Shown here: piece after piece, positions 648 through 10,925 of the stretch
Layout of the letters: each line of letters begins with the position of its first letter
Numbering within the stretch: the first letter of the stretch is position 1
Source: a bacterium
GTDB taxonomy: Bacteria > Patescibacteriota > Minisyncoccia > Phycocordibacterales > Zambryskibacteraceae
DNA: 10,925 nt
Reading direction: 5' to 3'
Assembly (NCBI GenBank): GCA_030649135.1
Contig: JAUSGI010000001.1
Coordinates: forward strand, 1-10,925
Position numbers and translations under genes: made by a program
Notes under the pieces: model-generated
What the model was told of the DNA's origin: nothing
Database searches by the model: none
What the model saw: only the letters and a program-made list of their open reading frames with translations

Positions 648-1814
648 ATGTCGTGGTTCAAGCGAAGTCTCGTATCGGTTACCGCGGCAAGTTTCGCCAT
701 TTTTCTTATCACTATTCTGTTGCCATCGTTTTTCGAATCTACTTATGATGCATCAACCTCTCTCACGAATCAGCCCCAAGTAGCATCTGTTCAAGCTGTG
801 GTAGTCAGTCACCAAGAGACCCCCGTACCTCTTAGGGCGCTTTACATGACTGCTTGCGTGGCCGGTACTCCGTCCTGGCGCGAGAATTTGAAAAAACTGG
901 TTGAGACAACCGAACTCAATGCCGTGGTGATAGATATCAAAGATTACACAGGAGTGGTCTCTTTTCCCAACGAATTTCCCAAGACGAATCTTGGCCACGG
1001 GTGTGTAGTTTCCGATATGTCTGAATTTATACAAACGCTTCATGATACTAAGATTTATGTCATTGGACGCATCTCCGTTTTCCAGGACCCTTCTTACACC
1101 AAACTTTTTCCCGCACTCGCAGTTAGAAAGAAAAGTGATGGTGAAGTCTGGAAGGATTATAAGGGTCTTTCTTTTATTGATGTCGGGGCGAAGCCTTATT
1201 GGGATTATATTGTGGCAATTTCGGAAGAGGCTTACGCACTCGGATTTGATGAGCTCAATTATGACTATGTTCGCTATCCTTCCGATGGCAATATAAAAGA
1301 CGCACTCTATACTTGGGCTGTCGGTACGACTACAAAGCCGGAGATGCTTGAAAGTTTTTTTGAATATCTGAAAGATAATTTGGAACATACGGGAGCCAAA
1401 CTTTCTGTCGACCTTTTCGGCATGACCACTACCGTGGAGAATGATATGAATATTGGACAAGTGCTTGAACTGGCCTTGCCTTATTTTGATTATGTCAGCC
1501 CGATGGTTTATCCTTCGCACTATCCTCCCACGTGGAACGGTTTTGCCAAACCTGCCGAGCACCCGTATGAAGTAGTGAAATTTGCTATGGCAAGAGGCAT
1601 GGAACGCGAACGAACTTTAAATACAGCAAACGGCCTAGCCACATCCACTCCGTCCAAACTTCGGCCTTGGTTACAGGACTTCAATCTCGGTGCGACTTAT
1701 GGACCGGACAAAGTCCGTGCCCAAATCCAAGCAACTTATGATGTCGGTCTCTCAAGTTGGATGATTTGGAACGCGGGGAATAAATATACCACTTCCGCGC
1801 TTTTACCGGAGTAG
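648..1814 (+). CDS. Membrane-anchored TIM-barrel putative glycoside hydrolase (DUF4015/GHL-like family), 388 aa
   Basis: Supplied ORF. An N-terminal signal-anchor helix is present. Motifs NAVVIDIKDYTG and ELNYDYVRYPSDG are typical of the putative-glycosyl-hydrolase DUF4015/GHL families (family assignment from memory, moderate). Codon usage matches the rest of the window. Confidence 0.8.
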   Translation: MSWFKRSLVSVTAASFAIFLITILLPSFFESTYDASTSLTNQPQVASVQAVVVSHQETPVPLRALYMTACVAGTPSWRENLKKLVETTELNAVVIDIKDYTGVVSFPNEFPKTNLGHGCVVSDMSEFIQTLHDTKIYVIGRISVFQDPSYTKLFPALAVRKKSDGEVWKDYKGLSFIDVGAKPYWDYIVAISEEAYALGFDELNYDYVRYPSDGNIKDALYTWAVGTTTKPEMLESFFEYLKDNLEHTGAKLSVDLFGMTTTVENDMNIGQVLELALPYFDYVSPMVYPSHYPPTWNGFAKPAEHPYEVVKFAMARGMERERTLNTANGLATSTPSKLRPWLQDFNLGATYGPDKVRAQIQATYDVGLSSWMIWNAGNKYTTSALLPE

Positions 1815-1815
1815 C

Positions 1816-1844
1816 TTGACAATACCTTCTCTAAGGTGTATAAT
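1816..1844 (+). promoter_or_regulatory. Perfect consensus sigma70 promoter: TTGACA, 17-nt spacer, TATAAT, with TG immediately 5' of the -10
   Basis: TTGACA is at 1816-1821 and TATAAT at 1839-1844. The predicted TSS is at about 1851. Confidence 0.7.
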
Positions 1845-1891
1845 ACTAAGAGACGTAGAATTGGCCGAATTTCCGCTAAGGAGAGCTTAAA

Positions 1892-2236
1892 ATGCTCGCT
1901 TCCACGAAACCCAACAAGGTAAAGCTGTACCGGCATCCCGGACAGGTAACCTCGAGTCTGACTGTGCGCCGAATTCTCTTCGACTTCGAGAAGATGGGGG
2001 TTAAGTGTCTGAGTATCGAGGACGACATCGTGAAGGGGTGGTGCCGCAATCCGGCGACCTACCCGCAGGAATTCCGCGACAAGGTCCTCTACCTCGGGGG
2101 GAAGACCGAGGTTCGAGGAGGCTGCGAGTCGGTACCCTGCCTGACGTGGTTTCCAGGCCTGGTGTCCGAGAAGTGGCTGCCGCTCGATACCAAGATCGGA
2201 GACACGTTCGTTGTCGCTCGACTGGCATCGTTCTAG
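1892..2236 (+). CDS. Hypothetical 114-aa protein encoded in a GC-rich, compositionally foreign island; Cys-containing, no recognisable family
   Basis: A strong SD, AAGGAGAG at 1878-1885, lies 8 nt before ATG 1892, which is the first in-frame start after a TAA. Codon third positions are about 77% G/C while the region is about 58% GC. That period-3 bias argues for coding rather than ncRNA. The stop TAG at 2234-2236 comes just before the terminator. Confidence 0.7.
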   Translation: MLASTKPNKVKLYRHPGQVTSSLTVRRILFDFEKMGVKCLSIEDDIVKGWCRNPATYPQEFRDKVLYLGGKTEVRGGCESVPCLTWFPGLVSEKWLPLDTKIGDTFVVARLASF

Positions 2237-2246
2237 TTCTGCAGTT

Positions 2247-2290
2247 CGCCCGGCACCCACGCAAGTGAGTGCCGGGCGGTTTTGTTTTTT
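2247..2290 (+). terminator. Strong rho-independent terminator
   Basis: CGCCCGGCAC (2247-2256) pairs perfectly with GTGCCGGGCG (2269-2278) as a 10-bp stem with a 12-nt loop. GTTTTGTTTTTT follows. Confidence 0.85.
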
Positions 2291-2292
2291 GT

Positions 2293-2300
2293 TGTATAAT
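2293..2300 (+). promoter_or_regulatory. TGTATAAT extended -10-like element 7 nt upstream of the ATPase ATG; a leaderless configuration, and a direct repeat of 1837-1844
   Basis: The 8-mer is identical to the one in the consensus promoter at 1837-1844. There is no good -35 upstream, because that region is the terminator stem. Confidence 0.4.
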
Positions 2301-2307
2301 TAGCGCG

Positions 2308-3978
2308 ATGGCAGATTCGCCAAAAGACCAAGTAATATATTTTGCCGAGACAGACTCGCGTAATAACCGCAAGAAGTTTGGAATTAAGACCGAAGATCGC
2401 TCCAAACATGTCTATGTCATAGGTAAGACCGGCATGGGCAAGTCCACGCTTCTTGAGAACATGGCTATTCAGGATATTCAAAATGGCAACGGTATTGCTT
2501 TCATCGACCCTCATGGCGGTACGGCAGAAAAACTTTTGGATTTTGTGCCCAAAGAGCGCATCAAGGATGTGTTGTATTTCGCTCCTTTTGATACTGAATA
2601 TCCGGTTGCCTTTAACGTCATGGAAGATGTCGGCGCCAACAAACGGCATCTAGTAGTCAGCGGTCTTATGAGCGCCTTCATGAAGCTCTTCGGGGAAGAG
2701 AGTTTTTCCGACAGAATGCAGTACATTCTCCAGAATACCATTCTTGCTCTTCTTGAGTATCCCGGTTCGACCATGCTCGGTATCAATAAAATGCTCGTTG
2801 ATAAGGAATATCGAAAAAATGTAATAGCGAATATTACTGATCCGTCGGTTAAGGCCTATTGGACACAGGAATATGCCGGTTACACAGAACGTTTCGCCGC
2901 AGAAGCTATACCCGCCATTCAGAACAAGATAGGCCAGTTCACATCAAATCCACTCATCAGAAATATCATTGGTCAAGAGAAATCCAGTTTCAATCTTCGA
3001 AAAATCATGGACGAGAAGAAGATTGTAATCGTCAATCTTTCCAAAGGCCGCGTAGGTGAAGACAATGCCCGCCTGCTTGGCTCGATGTTAATTACCAAAA
3101 TATATCTGGCGGCCATGTCACGCGCCGACGAGCGCGCCTCCTCGCTTGCCAAGCTCCCGCCATTTTTTCTGTACGTAGACGAATTCCAATCATTTGCCGA
3201 CAAGTCCTTCGCCGATATTTTGTCGGAAGCTCGCAAATATAAACTCAACCTGACCATGGCTCATATGTATATAGAACAGATGGAAGAAGAAGTGCGCGAT
3301 GCCGTCTTCGGCAACGTCGGCACCATGATAGTCTTCCGCGTGGGGGCTTACGACGCCGATGTATTGGAAAAGGAATTTGCCCCGGTTTTTATTGCAGAGG
3401 ATTTGGTCAACTTGGGATTGCGCCAAATCTACCTCAAACTGATGATAGACTCGGTGGCATCGCCGCCATTCTCCGCCACCACCATGCCGCCAATGCAGTC
3501 TTCAGAGGTTTCCCACACGGAGGAAATTATAGAATATTCTCGCAAGACCTTCGCCCAGCCAAGAAGTGAGGTTGAGAAACGTATCACCGACTGGCATGAA
3601 GCAGGCCGAGTGGCGGTAAAGACCGCTCCGCCCAGAGTGTTTAGCGCGCCTCCGATAGTTAAACCACAGGAGAAAAGACCGATAGAGAAAGTAATCTTAC
3701 CTGTCATGCCCGCGCATGCAGGGCAGGTAGGGAGTAAAATAGAACCCAAACCGCTTCCAAGCATTTCTCTCGAAACTCTGAAAAAGAGCACTGATAATCA
3801 GCGCAAGCCGGACGCCAAGCATGTCGCTGACCTGCGAGATGCGCTCAGAGCCATGACAGGGAATCAGCCGAAGCTAGAGACACCACCCCAGCCTCAAGTA
3901 CAACCGGTACACCCCCAGCCGACCATAAAGAAGGAACCTAGTCAGGAAGAGCTCAAAAAAATCCTCGATGTCCAATAA
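2308..3978 (+). CDS. TraG/VirD4/TrwB-like (type IV coupling-protein-like) P-loop ATPase with no N-terminal TM segment and a Pro/Gln-rich disordered C-terminal tail
   Basis: Walker A is VIGKTGMGKST, followed by IAFIDPHGG. Walker B is FFLYVDEFQSF, then NVGTMIVFRVG. This pattern is typical of the VirD4/TraG/DUF87 ATPase family. The start is taken as ATG 2308 (MADSPKDQ...) rather than the track's GTG 2269, which lies inside the terminator hairpin. The stop TAA at 3976-3978 overlaps the next gene. Confidence 0.8.
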   Translation: MADSPKDQVIYFAETDSRNNRKKFGIKTEDRSKHVYVIGKTGMGKSTLLENMAIQDIQNGNGIAFIDPHGGTAEKLLDFVPKERIKDVLYFAPFDTEYPVAFNVMEDVGANKRHLVVSGLMSAFMKLFGEESFSDRMQYILQNTILALLEYPGSTMLGINKMLVDKEYRKNVIANITDPSVKAYWTQEYAGYTERFAAEAIPAIQNKIGQFTSNPLIRNIIGQEKSSFNLRKIMDEKKIVIVNLSKGRVGEDNARLLGSMLITKIYLAAMSRADERASSLAKLPPFFLYVDEFQSFADKSFADILSEARKYKLNLTMAHMYIEQMEEEVRDAVFGNVGTMIVFRVGAYDADVLEKEFAPVFIAEDLVNLGLRQIYLKLMIDSVASPPFSATTMPPMQSSEVSHTEEIIEYSRKTFAQPRSEVEKRITDWHEAGRVAVKTAPPRVFSAPPIVKPQEKRPIEKVILPVMPAHAGQVGSKIEPKPLPSISLETLKKSTDNQRKPDAKHVADLRDALRAMTGNQPKLETPPQPQVQPVHPQPTIKKEPSQEELKKILDVQ

Positions 3979-5062
3979 ACGCATTCTAATATTTTCCCTC
4001 GCATATTATCCGGTGGAAGGCGGTGCAGAGATTGCAGTTAAAGAAATCACCAATCGTATTTCCGACATTGAATTTGACATGATTACTTTGCGTTTCGATC
4101 AGGCACACTTGCCTAAAGAGAAAATAGGGAATTGCACGGTATATCGTATAAACACCTCTAAGAATCTATACCCGTTTAGAGCTTTTTTATTTGCCCGGAA
4201 GTTGCATAAAAACCGGCCATACGATGCTACATGGGCCATTATGGCCAATTGGGCTGGATTTGCTGCGCTCTTTTTCAAGTTTTATTTTCCAAGTGTACCC
4301 TATGCACTCAACCTACAAGAAGGTGATCCCATCTCCTATATCAAACATAAGGTCTGGTTTGTCTACCCCTTGTTCAAAAGGATTTTTCTCTATGCGGACA
4401 TTATCCAGGCCATTTCAAAATATTTAGCAGACTGGGCACGAGAGATGGGTTACGAGGGACGATTAGAAGTGATACCCAACGGAGTAAATGTAAAAAGATT
4501 TGAAAACGAGAATCCAAAAGCTAAAAACGAGACAATCACTCTTATAACCACCTCCCGCCTTGTAGAGAAGAATGCTGTCGGAGATATCATAGATGCTTTA
4601 AAATTCCTGCCAGTGAATATGAAATTAAAGATTCTTGGCACGGGACCACTAGAATCGGATTTGAAGCAAAAAACTAAAGATCAGAGTTTGGAGAGTAGGG
4701 TAGAATTTTTAGGAAATATTCTTAATGATAATCTGCCAAAATATTTACACGAAGCCGATATTTTTATCAGACCATCACTTTCGGAAGGTATGGGCATCTC
4801 GTTTATTGAAGCTATGGCTGCCGGTTTGCCGGTCATTGCCACACCAGTTGGCGGTATTCCGGATTTTCTGAAAGATAGAGAGACTGGACTCTTCTGCAGA
4901 GTTAATGACCCAAAAAGTATTGCAGATAAAGTGATGGAGTATGTAAATAATCCCAAACTGGCATCTCAAATTGTAAAAAATGCAAAAGAAATGGTCGTTA
5001 GGAAATACGACTGGGACTTGATTGCGGAGGAGATGAAAAGGCAAGTTTTTGATAAAGTGTAG
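3968..5062 (+). CDS. GT4-family (GT-B fold) glycosyltransferase
   Basis: EGMGISFIEAMAAGLPVIATPVGGIPDF is an E-X7-E motif in a GT4 C-terminal domain. The start overlaps the upstream stop by 11 nt, consistent with translational coupling. Confidence 0.9.
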   Translation: MSNKRILIFSLAYYPVEGGAEIAVKEITNRISDIEFDMITLRFDQAHLPKEKIGNCTVYRINTSKNLYPFRAFLFARKLHKNRPYDATWAIMANWAGFAALFFKFYFPSVPYALNLQEGDPISYIKHKVWFVYPLFKRIFLYADIIQAISKYLADWAREMGYEGRLEVIPNGVNVKRFENENPKAKNETITLITTSRLVEKNAVGDIIDALKFLPVNMKLKILGTGPLESDLKQKTKDQSLESRVEFLGNILNDNLPKYLHEADIFIRPSLSEGMGISFIEAMAAGLPVIATPVGGIPDFLKDRETGLFCRVNDPKSIADKVMEYVNNPKLASQIVKNAKEMVVRKYDWDLIAEEMKRQVFDKV

Positions 5063-5064
5063 AT

Positions 5065-6069
5065 ATGCGCATTCTTATAGTCACAGGTATATATCCTCCT
5101 GAAATAGGGGGCCCGGCTGAATATGCCCTAAACCTCAAAGATACTTGGGTAAGGCAGGGCCATAAGGTAAAGGTCAAGATTTTTGGCCGATTTAGAAAAA
5201 TTCCATGGGGTATAAGGCATGTAATATTTCTTGTTTATATTTTGCCATCAGTAATGTGGTCAGACTGTATTTTTACACTCGATGCCTTTACTGCGGGAGT
5301 GTCTACTGTGGCCTCAAAGTTATTCAATAAGAAAAACATCTTCCGTACGGGAGGGGACGCGCTCTGGGAGCTATATGTAGAAAGAACGAACGATTTGGTT
5401 TTGTTACGGGATTTTTATAGAACGAGGCTTAAAAAATTGTCTGTGAAAGAGAAAGTAACATTCCATCTGATGAAATGGGCCCTACGAAATTTGTCCGCTA
5501 TTATCTGGAGTACCGAATGGCAGAAGAATATTTTCATGGAGCCGTATCATCTTTCTCGGCAAAACCATTTCATCGTGGAGAATTACTATGGGCCGAAGCT
5601 GGAATCGCGAAGGCCTGCAACCAAGAATTTTATCGCTGGGACTCGAAAGCTGAAATGGAAAAATATCGTGTTAGTTCAAAAAGTTTTTGAGCATAAGGAT
5701 ACCAAAGAGTCCGGAGCTATTTTGGATACTAGCATTGTCCATCACGACGAGTTTCTCAATAAGTTAAGCCAATCTTACGCTGTTATCATCGCCTCGCTAG
5801 GTGATATTAGCCCGAATACGATATTGGATGCCATAAGGTGTGGCAAACCCTTCATTCTGACTAGAGAAAATGGTCTCTACAGCCGTATTAAGGATATCGG
5901 TCTCTTTGTTGATCCCCAAGACGAGGAAGATATCAAAAGCAAGGTCCTTTGGCTCGTGCAAGAGGGCAATTATGCGAGCCAAAAGGCTAAGATTGATAGT
6001 TTCAGCTTCAGTCATACCTGGGAAGAAATTGCCGGAGAGTACATAACAGCTTTTAACTCAATCAAATGA
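5065..6069 (+). CDS. Divergent GT-B fold glycosyltransferase (GT4-like N-terminal domain)
   Basis: MRILIVTGIYPPEIGGPAEY is a typical GT4 N-terminal motif. The C-terminal half is Rossmann-like without a clean EX7E. The ATG lies 2 nt after the upstream TAG. Confidence 0.75.
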   Translation: MRILIVTGIYPPEIGGPAEYALNLKDTWVRQGHKVKVKIFGRFRKIPWGIRHVIFLVYILPSVMWSDCIFTLDAFTAGVSTVASKLFNKKNIFRTGGDALWELYVERTNDLVLLRDFYRTRLKKLSVKEKVTFHLMKWALRNLSAIIWSTEWQKNIFMEPYHLSRQNHFIVENYYGPKLESRRPATKNFIAGTRKLKWKNIVLVQKVFEHKDTKESGAILDTSIVHHDEFLNKLSQSYAVIIASLGDISPNTILDAIRCGKPFILTRENGLYSRIKDIGLFVDPQDEEDIKSKVLWLVQEGNYASQKAKIDSFSFSHTWEEIAGEYITAFNSIK

Positions 6070-7196
6070 AAGTTTTAATGATCTCAAGTGATAGGAATAT
6101 TTTGGTTCCCGGGAGCGCTGTTTCGGAGCGGATGAAAGAGTATGGAAATTTAGTCGAAGAGCTTCATATTGTGCTTATGTCAGATGCACGGCACAAATTG
6201 AAGGATAAGCAGTTGTCGAATAATGTATGGGTCTACACAACGAATTCCCCGATGACTTTTATGCGTCCGTTCAATGCCGCTCGGCTTGGCAGAAAAGTGG
6301 TATTTGATAGTCAGTTTGTGCGGGGGCGATCCATTATCACCACCCAAGATCCTTTCGAGTGTGGATGGGCTGGATTAAGGATAAAGAAGAGATGGAAGAT
6401 ACCATTGGAAGTACAACTGCATACTGACCCGTTTTCACCGTATTTTTCTGGTTTATTAAATCAGATCCGAAAAATTATTGCGAGAAGAGTTTTGCGTAAT
6501 GCCAATAGTGTACGGGTGGTTACTCTCGGTCTTAAAACTAAAGTTTCCGCTTTTACTTCTGCCGACATTAGTGTCTTGCCGATATATGTTGACCGTAAGC
6601 ACATTGAGGAGGCGAAAATTTCCTTTGACCTGCATACGCGTTATCCTTGGCATTTTATTCTGCTTGCCGTCTCGCGTCTTGCACCAGAGAAGAATCTTAG
6701 TCTGGCTCTTCGGGTGCTTGTACTTGTGCGAGAAAGATTCCCGGATACGGGACTGGTGATAGTCGGCTCTGGTCCGGAAGAAGGGCGGCTTAAGGCACTT
6801 ACTCAAAAGCTTAAACTTGTAGGAGCGGTTGAGTTTGTGGGTTGGCAGGACGATTTAACTTCCTTTTATAAAACTGCCAATGTCTTTATTCAAACCTCTA
6901 TCTTTGAGGGTTATGGCCTGTCATTAGTGGAGGCTGGTCTGTCCGACTTACCGGTCGTTACCACACCGGTTGGCATTGCACAAGAGTTGGAGAATGGTAA
7001 GGACGCATATATATATCCTGCAAATAATATCGAGGCTTTCGCAAATGGCATTGTAGACTTAATCGAGAATAATCAAAAGCGTGAAAACTTGCGTTTAAAC
7101 ATGAAGCAAACTCTCGAGGTAATGCTTATATCTAAAGGAGAATATCTAAAGGAGCTAAAGTCCAGTTGGGAGAAAACTGCTTTAAAGGTTAATTAG
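6066..7196 (+). CDS. GT4-family (GT-B fold) glycosyltransferase
   Basis: The segment LAVSRLAPEKN...EGYGLSLVEAGLSDLPVVTTPVG carries an EX7E motif. There is an ATGA start/stop overlap with the upstream gene. Confidence 0.9.
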   Translation: MKVLMISSDRNILVPGSAVSERMKEYGNLVEELHIVLMSDARHKLKDKQLSNNVWVYTTNSPMTFMRPFNAARLGRKVVFDSQFVRGRSIITTQDPFECGWAGLRIKKRWKIPLEVQLHTDPFSPYFSGLLNQIRKIIARRVLRNANSVRVVTLGLKTKVSAFTSADISVLPIYVDRKHIEEAKISFDLHTRYPWHFILLAVSRLAPEKNLSLALRVLVLVRERFPDTGLVIVGSGPEEGRLKALTQKLKLVGAVEFVGWQDDLTSFYKTANVFIQTSIFEGYGLSLVEAGLSDLPVVTTPVGIAQELENGKDAYIYPANNIEAFANGIVDLIENNQKRENLRLNMKQTLEVMLISKGEYLKELKSSWEKTALKVN

Positions 7197-7443: not shown

Positions 7444-7452
7444 TGGTATAAT
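7444..7452 (+). promoter_or_regulatory. Extended -10 element TGGTATAAT (identical 9-mer to the one at 372-380), with a weak -35
   Basis: It lies at the end of a 275-bp region of about 75% AT. The predicted TSS at about 7459 falls just after an in-frame TAG (7456-7458) and 12 nt before the TTG start. Confidence 0.45.
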
Positions 7453-7470
7453 CATTAGACAACAAATAAT

Positions 7471-10400
7471 TTGAAAGCCCAAAGATTGCTAGCAACTGGA
7501 TTGAGCGGTTTTATAATCGGAATTTTGGTTCTCAGTTTTTTAGGGGTATCTTTAAATAAGGTTTTTGCGGCGGGACCACCCTCAATTTTGAGCTATCAAG
7601 GTCGCCTTACTAATGCTTCAGGAAGTCTTCTTGGTGGTTCATCCGGAACTACTTTCTATTTCAAATTTTCAATATGGAGTGCTGCTAGTGGCGGGGCAAA
7701 GCTCTGGCCAGCATCCGACCCGACATCTTATGGCATTACGGTCAGAGAAGGCGTATTCAATGTAAATATTGGCGACACTACGAATGGTTATCCAGATACG
7801 CTTAATTATGATTTCTCGACGAGCACGAATGTATTTTTAAAGGTTGAAGTTTCTGATGATGATGTTGATTTTGAAACTCTCACTCCGCGACAGCAAATCA
7901 ATTCTGTCGCTTTTGCTCAAGTGGCGGGGGCGGTAGTTAGTGCATCTTCCACCATCGCCAATCTCACTGGTACTAACGCCACTACTACCAATGCTACTTC
8001 CACAAATTTCTTTAGTACTACAGCATCTTCAACAAATCTTTTTTCTGCCGCCATAACTTCAGGCTCTGCTATCTTTGCGAATCTTTTGGTAACCAGCTCA
8101 TCAACGCTCCAAAATTTCACTTTCACAAATGCTACAGGAACTTCCGCTACTACGACCAATCTCTTCTCCACCACTGCATCATCTTCCAACTTATTCACGG
8201 CATTATTCAACGGCGCTGGGTTAGCCACTTGCCAATCGAACAACGTCCTCACCTGGTCTGGTGGTATTTTCGGTTGCGAAACGGACGACAACACCTTCGC
8301 ATGGACTCCCATCTCTTACGGTACTCAAAACGTAGTTGCGACATCGACCGGCCTCTGGCTCAAAGGCTCACCTCTAGGCTTAGTTGCTTCTTCTACTTTC
8401 GCCACTTACTCCACCTCGACCAATGCCACCTCGACTAACTTTTTCTCTACTATCGCTTCGTCTACCAGTCTTTTCACATCAGCTTTGACCGTGAATGGCT
8501 TCGCCTTCACGGTCAATGGCGCTCCCACTTTGAACGACTGGTTCGACCAGTCCCTTAAGATCTCGGACGGGCCCGCTTTTTCCACTATCGATACTGGCCA
8601 TGGGGGTAATGAGCTCTATGCTATGGACCAAAACGTTCGGATCTCCGACGACGTAATCTTCGACGAACTCTTGCTAACCGGTTCTTCCACTTTGAGAAAT
8701 TTCACCTTCTTAAACGCCACCGGCACTTCCGCTACTACCACTAACTTCTTCGCCACGAATGCAAGTTCGACAAATCTCTTTACTACTCGACTTGGCATTG
8801 GCACTTCAAACCCCAGCAGTGCTCTAGAAGTTAATGGTGATATTCGTATCACCGCGAATTCCGGAGGGCGTCTCTACTTTAGTGATAGTTCCACACAAAA
8901 TAGTGCAATCGTGTCGGGAAGTGGTATTACAAGTTGGAGCGACTTGAATTTTCAAACCGGCGGAATCATGAACTTCCAAACCGGTAATGGTCTCGGCACC
9001 GCTACCACTACTCATATGGTTTTGGCTAATAACGGTAATATCGGGATTGGTACCACAACCCCAGGCACCCCGCTTGCTGTCACCGGTGCCGGAGTATTTA
9101 CTGGGTTAGTGACGGCACCCTTTTTCAATGCCACTTCTACAACCGATGTTTCTAATTTCCAACAAGTTCTCGTCCTTGCTTCCTCCACTCTTCAAAACTT
9201 TACTTTCTTAAACGCCACCGGCACTTCTGCTACTACCACTAGCTTCTTTGCTACTGTTTTAAATGCTACTACTGCTTCCACCACTAATCTTTTAGTAACC
9301 AGCTCATCAACGCTCCAAAATTTCACTTTCACAAATGCTACAGGAACTTCCGCCACCACCACCAATCTTTTCTCCACCACCGCATCATCTTCCAACTTAT
9401 TCACAGCATTATTCAACGGTGCCGGTCTTGCCACCTGCCAAACCAACAACGTCCTCACCTGGTCTGGTGGTATTTTCGGTTGCGAAACGGACGACAACAC
9501 CTTCGCATGGACTCCCACCTCTTACGGTACTCAAAACGTAGTTGCGACATCGACCGGTTTATGGCTCAAAGGTTCGCCTCTAGGCTTAATTGCCTCTTCT
9601 ACTTTCGCCACTTACTCCACCTCGACCAATGCTACTTCTACTAATTTCTTTGCCACCACGGCTTCATCCACTAGTCTTTTCGCAGCGGTCTTATCATCAG
9701 GCTCCGCCACCCTCGGCGATCTTTTACTTAACAGCTCATCGACACTCCAAAACTTTACTTTCCTAAATGCTACTGGCACTAACGCTACCACTACCAATAT
9801 TTTCTCCACCACTGCTTCTTCTACTAATCTTTTCACCGCTCTTTTCAATGGCGCTGGTCTTGCTACCTGCCAGACCAACAACATGCTCACTTGGGCTGGA
9901 GGAACATTCGGTTGCGAGGTTGATAATGATACCTTCGAATGGACTCCCACCGCTTGGGGCAACTCTACTTCCACCACTCTCGGTTTCTCGCAAGGTTTCC
10001 TCTCTACCGCTTCTTCTACCATAGACTCCAACTTGATTATCACTGGTAACTCCACTACTACCAACGCCACCACTACCAATATTTTCTCCACCACCGCATC
10101 ATCAACCGGTCTTTTTGCAGCGGTTTTATCATCAGGCTCCGCCACCTTCGGCGATCTTTTAATAAATAGCTCATCGACACTCCAAAACTTTACTTTCTTA
10201 AATGCTACTGGCACTAACGCTACCACTACCAATATTTTCTCCACCACCGCATCCACCACTAACTTCTTTGGTGCTGACTTAACCCCATGTACTTCAAATA
10301 ACGTCTTGACTTGGACAGGGGGGAAGTTTGGCTGTGAAGCAGATGACACCGGTAGTGCCACCTTCGGCAAAGACTGGAACATCTTTACCGTTGGCCGGCT

Positions 10401-10925
10401 TGCCCCGACTACCACAGTGGCTGTTTATGTGGGAGCAACCACCACAGCCTCCCTTACCAACAACTCGTACTTCCAAGTGAATGCGACTTCCACTACTGGA
10501 GACTTAATCGTGGCTTCTTCCTCCCAGGACTTCACTGGCAACTTCTTAAGATTCCTCAATGCCGCTGGTGCAACTCTCTTCTCTGTTGATAATACCGGTT
10601 CTTTGATTGCCGCTTCCACTACTTTCACCAACGCTACCTCGACCAATCTCTTCTCCACCACCGCATCTTCATCGAACCTCTACACCGCTCTCTTTAATGG
10701 CGCCGGTCTTGCCACTTGCCAAACCAACAACGTCCTCACCTGGGCCGGTGGAGAGTTCGGTTGCGAAGCGGATGATAGCGGCAGCGCTGGCTTCGGCAAA
10801 ACTTTTGAAATGTCCAACACCAACTTCCTCGCTCCCACCACCACGGTCTCGGTGATTATCGGCTCCACCACCACCCCGGACAAAAGCGCTTTATTCCAAG
10901 TGAACGCCACCGGCACCACAGGTAA
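7471..10925 (+). CDS. Giant secreted Thr/Ser/Asn-rich tandem-repeat surface protein, 3'-partial (at least 1,151 codons; continues beyond the window)
   Basis: I translated the frame by hand from TTG 7471 (TTG 7486 is an alternative start) to the window end and found no stop codon. The N-terminus, KAQRLLATGLSGFIIGILVLSFLGVSLNKVFA|AG, is a signal peptide. The body consists of repeated modules S-T-L-Q-N-F-T-F-x-N-A-T-G-T-x-A-T-T-T-N-x-F-S-T-T-A-S-S-x-N-L-F followed by A-L-F-N-G-A-G-L-A-T-C-Q-T-N-N-V-L-T-W-x-G-G-x-F-G-C-E-x-D-D. The ORF track omits it because no stop lies in the window and the start is TTG. Confidence 0.85.
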   Translation, partial: MKAQRLLATGLSGFIIGILVLSFLGVSLNKVFAAGPPSILSYQGRLTNASGSLLGGSSGTTFYFKFSIWSAASGGAKLWPASDPTSYGITVREGVFNVNIGDTTNGYPDTLNYDFSTSTNVFLKVEVSDDDVDFETLTPRQQINSVAFAQVAGAVVSASSTIANLTGTNATTTNATSTNFFSTTASSTNLFSAAITSGSAIFANLLVTSSSTLQNFTFTNATGTSATTTNLFSTTASSSNLFTALFNGAGLATCQSNNVLTWSGGIFGCETDDNTFAWTPISYGTQNVVATSTGLWLKGSPLGLVASSTFATYSTSTNATSTNFFSTIASSTSLFTSALTVNGFAFTVNGAPTLNDWFDQSLKISDGPAFSTIDTGHGGNELYAMDQNVRISDDVIFDELLLTGSSTLRNFTFLNATGTSATTTNFFATNASSTNLFTTRLGIGTSNPSSALEVNGDIRITANSGGRLYFSDSSTQNSAIVSGSGITSWSDLNFQTGGIMNFQTGNGLGTATTTHMVLANNGNIGIGTTTPGTPLAVTGAGVFTGLVTAPFFNATSTTDVSNFQQVLVLASSTLQNFTFLNATGTSATTTSFFATVLNATTASTTNLLVTSSSTLQNFTFTNATGTSATTTNLFSTTASSSNLFTALFNGAGLATCQTNNVLTWSGGIFGCETDDNTFAWTPTSYGTQNVVATSTGLWLKGSPLGLIASSTFATYSTSTNATSTNFFATTASSTSLFAAVLSSGSATLGDLLLNSSSTLQNFTFLNATGTNATTTNIFSTTASSTNLFTALFNGAGLATCQTNNMLTWAGGTFGCEVDNDTFEWTPTAWGNSTSTTLGFSQGFLSTASSTIDSNLIITGNSTTTNATTTNIFSTTASSTGLFAAVLSSGSATFGDLLINSSSTLQNFTFLNATGTNATTTNIFSTTASTTNFFGADLTPCTSNNVLTWTGGKFGCEADDTGSATFGKDWNIFTVGRLAPTTTVAVYVGATTTASLTNNSYFQVNATSTTGDLIVASSSQDFTGNFLRFLNAAGATLFSVDNTGSLIAASTTFTNATSTNLFSTTASSSNLYTALFNGAGLATCQTNNVLTWAGGEFGCEADDSGSAGFGKTFEMSNTNFLAPTTTVSVIIGSTTTPDKSALFQVNATGTTG
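8083..8476 (+). repeat. Intragenic direct repeat, copy A (about 390 nt), paired with 9289..9682
   Basis: The offset is exactly 1206 nt with no indels. Roughly nine in ten nucleotides are identical by eye across the compared core (8091-8230 vs 9297-9436). Nearly all differences are synonymous third positions, and the proteins differ at only about 3 of roughly 118 residues. Confidence 0.8.
9289..9682 (+). repeat. Intragenic direct repeat, copy B, paired with 8083..8476
   Basis: See copy A. Confidence 0.8.

Follow-up and report, generated by a model that had tools for sequence, protein, structure and literature searches.

A conserved paired-cysteine hairpin module in the stalk of a probable fibrous surface protein of Patescibacteria

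The last third of a 10,925-nucleotide (nt) stretch of bacterial DNA (contig JAUSGI010000001.1, hereafter the window) is occupied by a single forward-strand open reading frame (ORF) that remains open in frame 1 from position 7459 to beyond the window end at 10925 and encodes a large protein, here called the fibre protein, whose Thr/Ser/Asn-rich sequence is punctuated by five copies of a short module with two cysteines. The existence of this Cys-hairpin module is confirmed; it is strongly conserved, confined to one lineage and as yet undescribed. With moderate confidence, we interpret it as a disulfide-stapled hairpin that punctuates the stalk of a Sec-exported, tail-fibre-like surface fibre of Patescibacteria, probably an adhesin.

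The fibre protein contains exactly ten cysteines, arranged as five pairs that all have the spacing C-x14-C and whose first-Cys codons lie at 8230, 9436, 9868, 10288 and 10717. Each pair belongs to a module of about 26 residues, G-A-G-L-x-x-C-x14-C-E-x-D-D, and module spacing is about 144 residues (432-435 nt):

8212..8289, + strand: Cys-hairpin module 1, GAGLATCQSNNVLTWSGGIFGCETDD
9418..9495, + strand: Cys-hairpin module 2, GAGLATCQTNNVLTWSGGIFGCETDD
9850..9927, + strand: Cys-hairpin module 3, GAGLATCQTNNMLTWAGGTFGCEVDN, the copy used for modelling
10270..10347, + strand: Cys-hairpin module 4, with a divergent lead-in, GADLTPCTSNNVLTWTGGKFGCEADD
10699..10776, + strand: Cys-hairpin module 5, GAGLATCQTNNVLTWAGGEFGCEADD

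The original prediction, made from the DNA letters and their translations, had summarized these units as G-L-A-T-C-Q-(S/T)-N-N-(V/M)-L-T-W-x-G-G-x-F-G-C-E-x-D-(D/N), a motif to which units 1, 2, 3 and 5 conform exactly but unit 4 (GADLTPCTSNNVLTWTGGKFGCEADD) does not; the unit starts that it gave are correct to within about 15 nt, and the spacing that it named, C-X13-C, has to be replaced by C-x14-C, the motif itself having 14 residues between its cysteines. At the DNA level the repeat copies are 64-90% identical, a divergence that points to old duplications rather than an assembly artefact, and Tandem Repeats Finder detects no long array in the gene because the units are both separated and diverged.

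The stalk is otherwise built from a conserved element (the stalk element) of about 33-34 residues, SSSTLQNFTF(T/L)NATGT(S/N)ATTTN(L/I)FSTTAS(S/T)(S/T)N(L/F)F, which is rich in Thr, Ser and Asn, has fixed aromatic positions, and shows recurrence of Asn and Thr at lags of 5 and 10 residues:

7945..8043, + strand: stalk element variant SSTIANLTGTNATTTNATSTNFFSTTASSTNLF, with no Cys module after it
8095..8196, + strand: stalk element SSSTLQNFTFTNATGTSATTTNLFSTTASSSNLF, ahead of module 1
8683..8781, + strand: stalk element on its own (no Cys module follows); RLGIGTSNPSSALEVNG comes next, at 8791
9181..9294, + strand: stalk element on its own (no Cys module follows)
9301..9402, + strand: stalk element ahead of module 2
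9733..9834, + strand: stalk element ahead of module 3
10168..10269, + strand: stalk element ahead of module 4
10618..10683, + strand: short stalk element TTFTNATSTNLFSTTASSSNLY, ahead of module 5

A full stalk segment ahead of every module, as first described, is thus present for four of the five units, but unit 5 has only the short form TTFTNATSTNLFSTTASSSNLY. Since the element also occurs three times without a Cys module (7945, 8683 and 9181), element and module are separable.

A search with the whole protein returned 195 homologues, 120 listed ones being used for the homologue counts given here; those with names come nearly all from Parcubacteria, Paceibacterota, Minisyncoccia, Zambryskibacteria or other Patescibacteria. 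Both cysteines are present in 85 of the 85 instances that a hidden Markov model of the module detects in the 120, and in an alignment of 70 sequences covering the module plus its flanks no other column is invariant; positions G15, L18, L27, G32 and F34 of the module alignment (A2) are at least 90% conserved. The window copies match the family pattern, which consists of a G-x-G-L lead-in, an L-x-W/Y first strand, a G-rich turn and an F-x-C second strand. A 46-column profile of the module, searched against 1.84 billion protein cluster representatives, identified 612 carriers at an expectation value (E) <=0.001 and 220 at E<=1e-10, so that the suggested search for proteins with the Cys-module signature is hereby answered; in 127 carriers beyond the first homologue set, 490/490 full-length instances have both cysteines. 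As a guard against circularity, the search was repeated with a profile in which the Cys columns were masked; it yielded 529 instances with both cysteines, and about 99% of instances keep the pair, the apparent exceptions being about 45 copies in which the first cysteine has moved by one to three positions and one true Cys-to-Val substitution. Loop length varies across the family from x14 to x18, with insertions after the first cysteine or in the turn, and F-x-C is fixed. At the level of whole proteins, 874 of the 978 cysteines in the 120 listed homologues (89%) lie in local pairs, and 96 of the 120 have an even Cys count. With one true substitution among about 600 copies, the cysteines are conserved in homologues, and the invariance, the local pairing and the hairpin predicted within the loop (see below) agree with the initial suggestion that the pair would act as a structural staple in an exported protein.

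Giant relatives of Parcubacteria or Peregrinibacteria type (P0121, 5078 residues (aa); P0125, 3137 aa; P0128, 1845 aa) carry about 11-19 C-x12-21-C loops each. Nearly all loops of P0125 and P0128 belong to a variant module, EGAASGSSLY(V/I)A(S/T)S(L/I)(N/Q)GAGL(T/V)DCDxxxxSKLLWDxTTGRFSCGTD, which recurs at intervals of 100-120 residues in the absence of the Thr-rich stalk element. Of the two units, the hairpin module is therefore the one that is more widespread and more independent.

No family in Pfam (E<=0.01), NCBIfam or PHROGs covers the module in the whole ORF; Pfam searches of the 70 module segments gave nothing consistent, and those of four distant carriers nothing on the module. Sequence and profile searches of the PDB with the module returned two chance-level matches only (E 0.77 and 1.2), and a Foldseek comparison of the module model, which is weak outside the hairpin, with the PDB gave no match below E 2.5, the top ones being disulfide hairpins of the Cys-rich domains of the EGFR family (18 columns, root-mean-square deviation 0.6-0.7 Angstrom). 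Full-text literature searches found no description of the module, nor did a term search of two papers on Patescibacteria surface proteins (PMC13059738; PMC10633639). The view that this is not a recognized named repeat is therefore borne out, no characterized repeat family having matched by sequence, profile or fold in the databases searched; likewise, the absence of any YadA head, stalk or anchor Pfam domain at E<=0.01 agrees with its having been set apart from YadA/Hia. A search of the 120 homologues for a version of the hairpin that lacks the cysteines (the GxxLxWNGSxW type of other tail-fibre-like proteins) gave only four loose matches, too few for comparing profiles.

The distribution of the module was assessed with a back-translated DNA pattern, C-x3-N-x-L-T-W-x2-G-x-F-x-C (strict x14 only), in one genome for each of 185,579 GTDB species. 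Fifteen of the 26 loci that it matched are genuine in-frame modules, 14 of them in metagenome-assembled genomes (MAGs) of Saccharibacteria, Parcubacteria, Minisyncoccia, Adlerbacteria or the 'Patescibacteria group' and one (L012) in a 'MAG: bacterium'; the remaining 11, from other phyla, are out of frame or stop-filled, and about nine chance matches were expected. Carriers with a taxon name in the profile search belong to Parcubacteria and Peregrinibacteria, one being called a 'cell wall surface anchor family protein'; they lie on contigs of up to 0.66 Mb, and the four proteins listed have about 6-19 C-x12-21-C loops each. Among IMG/VR viral contigs, five of five pattern matches are genuine. 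As far as tested, the module is restricted to Patescibacteria and phage-like contigs.

The 5' end of the gene suggests how the protein would leave the cytoplasm:

7471..10925, + strand: large ORF of at least 1151 aa from 7471, whose product runs off the contig end (start candidates follow an in-frame stop at 7456-7458)
7471..7572, + strand: signal peptide or signal anchor, read from the sequence as LKAQRLLATGLSGFIIGILVLSFLGVSLNKVFA with the boundary before A

A basic n-region is followed by a hydrophobic core of 21 residues and the ending V-F-A, and the closest full-length homologue, P0002, has a matching N-terminus, MKNRKSSVLWLSVFIVGLLTLGSLGFTLKTYA with the boundary before AGPP. These features would suit a Sec signal peptide or a signal anchor, and from them we infer export of the fibre protein. 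Most module-bearing homologues open either with a signal peptide or with a helix-turn-helix (HTH) plus transmembrane (TM) N-terminus.

For a structural view of the module, one unit containing module 3 (window 9673-10050) was modelled as a monomer with AlphaFold2, using the 70-sequence alignment. Inside the Cys loop, the model contains a β-hairpin, N70-A75/T78-V83, with a G76-G77 turn and a predicted local distance difference test (pLDDT) score of 76-85. L72 and W74 of the first strand and F79 and C81 of the second would share one face, and Cys66 sits four residues ahead of the first strand. To the proposed question of a β-solenoid or a fibre, the model contributes the predicted hairpin inside the loop; in the stalk it has no strands (pLDDT 47-62).

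According to the interpretation that we favour, the region would encode the stalk of a large, exported, fibrous cell-surface protein of an ultrasmall bacterium of the Patescibacteria (candidate phyla radiation, CPR), probably of the Parcubacteria/Paceibacteria, with a shaft built from the conserved T/S/N/F stalk element. L-T-W and F-G-C would be the two strands of a tight β-hairpin around the G-G turn, and the two invariant cysteines are most probably joined in a disulfide once the protein is exported. Such a bond would hold the lead-in against the hydrophobic L/W/F face of the hairpin and give the fibre a locked, rigid knot; the modules could then be pictured as oxidatively locked knots along its length, with the missing distal part presumably carrying the binding function and attachment to a host cell or substrate as the likely role. 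We infer both the formation of the disulfide and its intrachain topology. PF13884 (Peptidase_S74) is found at the C-terminus of 29 of the 120 listed homologues (confirmed in P0019 at E 1e-8), and because relatives end in this intramolecular chaperone, which is typical of phage tail fibres and tailspikes, the fibre probably resembles a tail fibre and, by analogy, is a trimer; a monomer model that is poor outside the hairpin would be compatible with an obligate oligomer but does not demonstrate one.

Several observations weigh against this interpretation. Outside the hairpin the model is poor (pLDDT 47-68, overall mean 63), and within it Cys81 lies opposite Leu72, not Cys66, so that an intrachain bond needs the lead-in to fold back; judged by the model, an interchain bond in a trimer would be equally compatible. 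The window contains no thiol-oxidoreductase gene. PF13884 is not detectable by Pfam in P0002, the closest full-length homologue, and the window ORF is truncated at 10925, ahead of the part in which PF13884 or a C-terminal anchor would lie. A function as an adhesin, finally, is suggested by analogy only.

The composition of the fibre protein (Thr 19%, Ser 13%, Ala 10%, Gly 9%, Asn 9% and Phe 8%; Ser+Thr 32%) bears on a second way of reading the region, first raised by what was described as a very high density of N-x-S/T sequons. In raw terms these are indeed numerous, 33 in 1155 aa being roughly six times the density of a typical protein, but they are no feature in their own right. Residue shuffles give 32.6 +/- 4.6 sequons and 51% of them reach the observed count, so that the density is a by-product of a Thr/Ser/Asn-rich composition; moreover, any given stalk sequon survives in no more than 35-57% of the homologous segments, compared with >90% for adjacent Thr/Ala positions. 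The N-x-S/T triplets are not evidence of N-glycosylation.

It could nonetheless be supposed that the protein is a heavily glycosylated, mucin-like or S-layer-like surface glycoprotein, in which sequons or Ser/Thr residues are functional, the Cys modules are secondary and the decorating enzymes are the three GT4 glycosyltransferases encoded in the gene block (648-7196) that lies immediately upstream of the fibre gene and is co-directional with it:

648-1814, + strand: DUF4015 putative glycosyl hydrolase (E 2e-90)
2269-3978, + strand: HerA/VirD4/TraD-like P-loop ATPase, with a strong match to the uncharacterised phrog_5156 (E 8e-61)
3968-5062, + strand: GT4 glycosyltransferase, first of three whose ends overlap or abut
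5065-6069, + strand: GT4 glycosyltransferase, second of three
6066-7196, + strand: GT4 glycosyltransferase, third of three

Three GT4 genes and a putative glycosyl hydrolase in this position, a protein that is about one-third Ser and Thr, the recurrence of NFT and NAT in the stalk element, and the presence of GT4 and methyltransferase genes 3.7 kb from the gene of P0002 all fit such a role. Set against this, the sequon count matches composition and the retention of sequons among homologues is low, the extended bacterial sequon D/E-x-N-x-S/T occurs zero times in the 1155 aa, and Pfam and NCBIfam find only GT4 enzymes in the window, with no oligosaccharyltransferase or HMW1C-like N-glycosyltransferase. 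In addition, the conserved aromatics of the stalk suggest that its element is folded and not disordered like a mucin, and in a phmmer comparison of 23 other module-bearing loci, which has low sensitivity and concerns short loci, linkage to GT4 was seen for the closest homologue P0002 only and the other 22 had no GT4 relative. We therefore consider this account unlikely, though O-glycosylation of Ser/Thr is conceivable.

The geometry of the predicted hairpin lends itself to another arrangement, in which the cysteines would not pair within a chain; instead, disulfides would link the six present at each level of a trimer from chain to chain (as a covalent ring or a cystine knot), or the six would bind a metal on the three-fold axis. 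Apart from Cys81 facing Leu72 instead of Cys66, this would agree with the relationship of the family to trimeric tail fibres and with the structural disulfide networks known in phage tails, such as those reported for phage Milano (PMC10811340). A local, fixed spacing combined with a lead-in of variable length is, however, typical of intrachain loops; two cysteines per chain would bind a metal poorly, and His, Asp or Glu ligands are not conserved, except for the E-x-D-D tail of one subtype. We regard the interchain arrangement as improbable.

The viral occurrences of the module raise the question of whether the window ORF is the tail-fibre (receptor-binding) protein of a phage or prophage, and not a cellular surface protein. 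On the five IMG/VR contigs, portal or tail genes are found nearby in at least four cases, and the neighbours of the module gene include an SU10-like portal, Gly_rich_2 or tail-fibre-assembly-like proteins, collagen-like tail fibres and a minor tail protein; the genes for P0003 and P0019 adjoin Collar, NUMOD3, HNH, Amidase_2 and Peptidase_S74 genes, and many homologues have PF13884. The surroundings of the window copy are of a different kind, consisting of glycosyltransferases, a glycosyl hydrolase and a HerA/VirD4-like ATPase; Pfam and PHROGs detect no capsid, portal, tail or lysis genes in the window, and the whole fibre ORF has no PHROG match. Relatives are also found in plainly chromosomal contexts and on contigs of 0.2-0.66 Mb, and P0013, for example, is encoded near GroES/EL, SecG and RNase J. 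Together with the signal peptide or anchor of the fibre protein, these non-phage neighbours make a prophage tail fibre very unlikely for the window copy.

Fibre proteins in phage-like blocks (L007 5512-7590; L005 4433-7945; P0019 in L003; P0003 in L002) themselves carry Sec-type signal peptides, for example MKKLLYIILGVIIGASALTVSAQ, which is unusual for virion tail fibres. As a tentative and, on balance, doubtful extension of the surface-fibre interpretation, Patescibacteria cells and their phages might share a lineage-specific, disulfide-locked fibre module that would be exchanged between phage and cell; cellular copies would then be exported, 'domesticated', tail-fibre-like receptor-binding fibres used by obligate epibionts for host recognition, and phage-encoded copies with signal peptides would possibly be displayed on the cell surface and not in virions.

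That the Thr/Asn-rich stalk is instead a monomeric β-helix akin to pentapeptide repeats (x-N-hydrophobic-x-x, like A(D/N)LXX), with the Cys loops as caps or insertions in the solenoid, is barely credible: the recurrence of Asn and Thr at lags 5 and 10 and a reading of the element as about seven pentads (SSSTL/QNFTF/TNATG/TSATT/TNLFS/TTASS/SNLFT) speak for it, but such runs, of at most about seven pentads, make under two coils, no Pentapeptide Pfam match is found in the ORF (E<=0.01) or the 70 module segments (E<=1), and AlphaFold2, which models pentapeptide repeats readily, predicts no strands in the stalk at pLDDT 47-62.

Between its signal segment and the stalk, the fibre protein has a separate globular domain:

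7573..7938, + strand: N-terminal globular domain of 122 residues, GPPSILSYQGRL...AQVAGAVV, predicted by AlphaFold2 to be an all-beta sandwich

Its model, computed from 29 sequences, has seven strands, a mean pLDDT of 86.8 and a predicted template modelling score (pTM) of 0.78; comparison with PDB and BFVD gave nothing significant, the best matches being to generic Ig-like sandwiches (E 0.03 and 0.013, respectively). The 27 homologues of this domain are chiefly Patescibacteria fragments, and those designated P0255-P0281 are mostly pieces of 110-210 aa on short contigs. A second N-terminal architecture is seen in homologues P0004, P0005, P0008, P0009, P0023, P0027, P0032 and P0040, which share a basic, conserved segment of about 60 residues, FLDGKEYISAxRASKKIGYASDYIGQLCRAKKIPGxLxGxTWYV; NCBI calls one relative 'helix-turn-helix domain-containing'. 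In P0023 and P0027, the basic segment precedes a hydrophobic segment and then the fibre, and by their sequence such HTH-type relatives can be read as type II membrane fibre proteins with a cytoplasmic, DNA-binding-like head.

All start candidates of the fibre ORF are TTG codons (7471, 7486, 7501 and 7525), with no ATG start. Its product is 100% identical to the NCBI entry 'MAG: hypothetical protein Q7R69_00045, partial [bacterium]', to which a start at 7471 would add 18 residues. The entry therefore starts at 7525, probably too far downstream because most of the hydrophobic signal sequence would be lost; homologue P0002 also favours an earlier start. No obvious Shine-Dalgarno sequence accompanies the TTG candidates at 7471-7525, and a perfect match to the extended -10 motif, TGGTATAAT, is found at 7444-7452, just upstream of the opening of the ORF at 7459. 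A strong negative GC skew (-0.16 to -0.34) is limited to the fibre gene within window 7500-10500 and results from its codon content, where C occupies 42% of the second and 38% of the third positions because of the many Thr, Ser and Ala codons. Minus-strand ORFs at 7917-8312, 9192-9518 and 9612-10415 were rejected as genes, since they are a Val-rich (22-28%) mirror of the Thr-rich coding strand.

Assemblies repeatedly break inside genes of this family, and the window, P0006 and P0013 all start or end within one. P0006 (Q7R69_03725), which comes from the same MAG, begins with NTFAWTPTTYGTQNVVATSTGLWLKGSPLGLIASSTFATYS, nearly identical to window 9496-9618, and may be either the missing C-terminal continuation of the window ORF or a paralogue; further downstream it has an LVIVD propeller (PF08309), GIGTT motifs in large number and a C-terminal piece that is conserved. 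The C-termini of P0002, P0006 and P0023 share WLAD(A/S)GNG(I/L)..FFA......(E/K)LC(I/V)....(5-7 residues)..C(I/V)T(K/G), a piece with a second, shorter Cys pair that is followed by a Pro/Glu/Thr-rich tail and has no Pfam coverage. In the window, the non-repeated insert between modules 1 and 2 contains two (L/I)GIGTxxP motifs, RLGIGTSNPSSALEVNG (8791-8814) and NIGIGTTTPGTPLAVTG (9040-9063); since GIGTxxP recurs many times in P0006, P0023 and P0027, it looks, by sequence, like another family-wide building block.

Much of bacterial diversity belongs to Patescibacteria (CPR), whose cultured members live attached to other cells by molecules that are mostly unknown. The Cys-hairpin module marks several hundred large surface and tail-fibre-like proteins that are now labelled 'hypothetical', and its profile (alignment A2) offers a handle for finding candidate attachment fibres in CPR genomes and CPR-associated phage contigs and for choosing structural constructs. 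The analysis also corrects the tempting, unsupported reading of a sequon-rich protein as an N-glycoprotein. On its own, as a structural repeat, the module has value as a lead, not a discovery.

The known systems closest to the fibre protein include phage tail fibres and tailspikes with a C-terminal Peptidase_S74 chaperone, examples being the K1F endosialidase and, in phage T5, the L-shaped tail fibre. In homologues of the fibre protein, a C-terminal PF13884 likewise occurs together with long, repetitive stalks and with GIGTxxP motifs; several have the NCBI name 'tail fiber domain-containing protein', and some are encoded within phage structural blocks. The window protein, on the other hand, has a signal peptide, non-phage neighbours and a missing C-terminus, and neither its Cys-hairpin module nor its NFTF/NATGT stalk element matches a PHROG, a Pfam family or a solved tail-fibre structure. 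The EGF-like and furin-like Cys-rich repeats of EGFR/HER also have a short two-stranded hairpin with a cysteine in the second strand, but contain two to three disulfides each and have no sequence similarity to the module, so that the analogy is one of principle only.

Serine-rich repeat glycoproteins of the Fap1/GspB type, which in Gram-positive bacteria are glycosylated by the GT4-family enzymes GtfA/GtfB, resemble the window protein in that it is Ser/Thr-rich, exported (as read from its N-terminus), fibrous and encoded beside GT4 genes. It differs from them in having 33-residue T/S/N/F elements instead of SASASAST-type dipeptide repeats, in a stalk with conserved aromatics, Asn and Cys modules that those glycoproteins lack, and in the absence of accessory SecA2/SecY2 genes from the window, while an LPXTG anchor would belong to the missing C-terminus; furthermore, linkage to glycosyltransferases is not general in the Cys-module family. 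The resemblance to pentapeptide repeat proteins (PF00805 clan) consists of the five-residue Asn/Thr periodicity of the stalk, with about seven pentads, but the runs are short and interrupted, without a Pfam match or a predicted β-helix.

Giant or large surface proteins of Patescibacteria have been proposed as host-attachment adhesins (PMC13059738; PMC10633639), and share with the fibre protein the phylum-level group, a large size and the presence of a signal peptide or a TM segment; for both, a role where epibiont and host meet is proposed. The domains and systems described there are fibronectin III, Ca-stabilised adhesin repeats, concanavalin A and integrin, or type IV pili and a type IV secretion system (T4SS), whereas a search of both papers for the terms 'tail fiber', 'fiber'/'fibre' and 'cysteine' found no occurrence. 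We would class the module as a new sequence module in proteins of a familiar kind, namely tail-fibre-like fibrous surface proteins with disulfide-stapled mini-domains.

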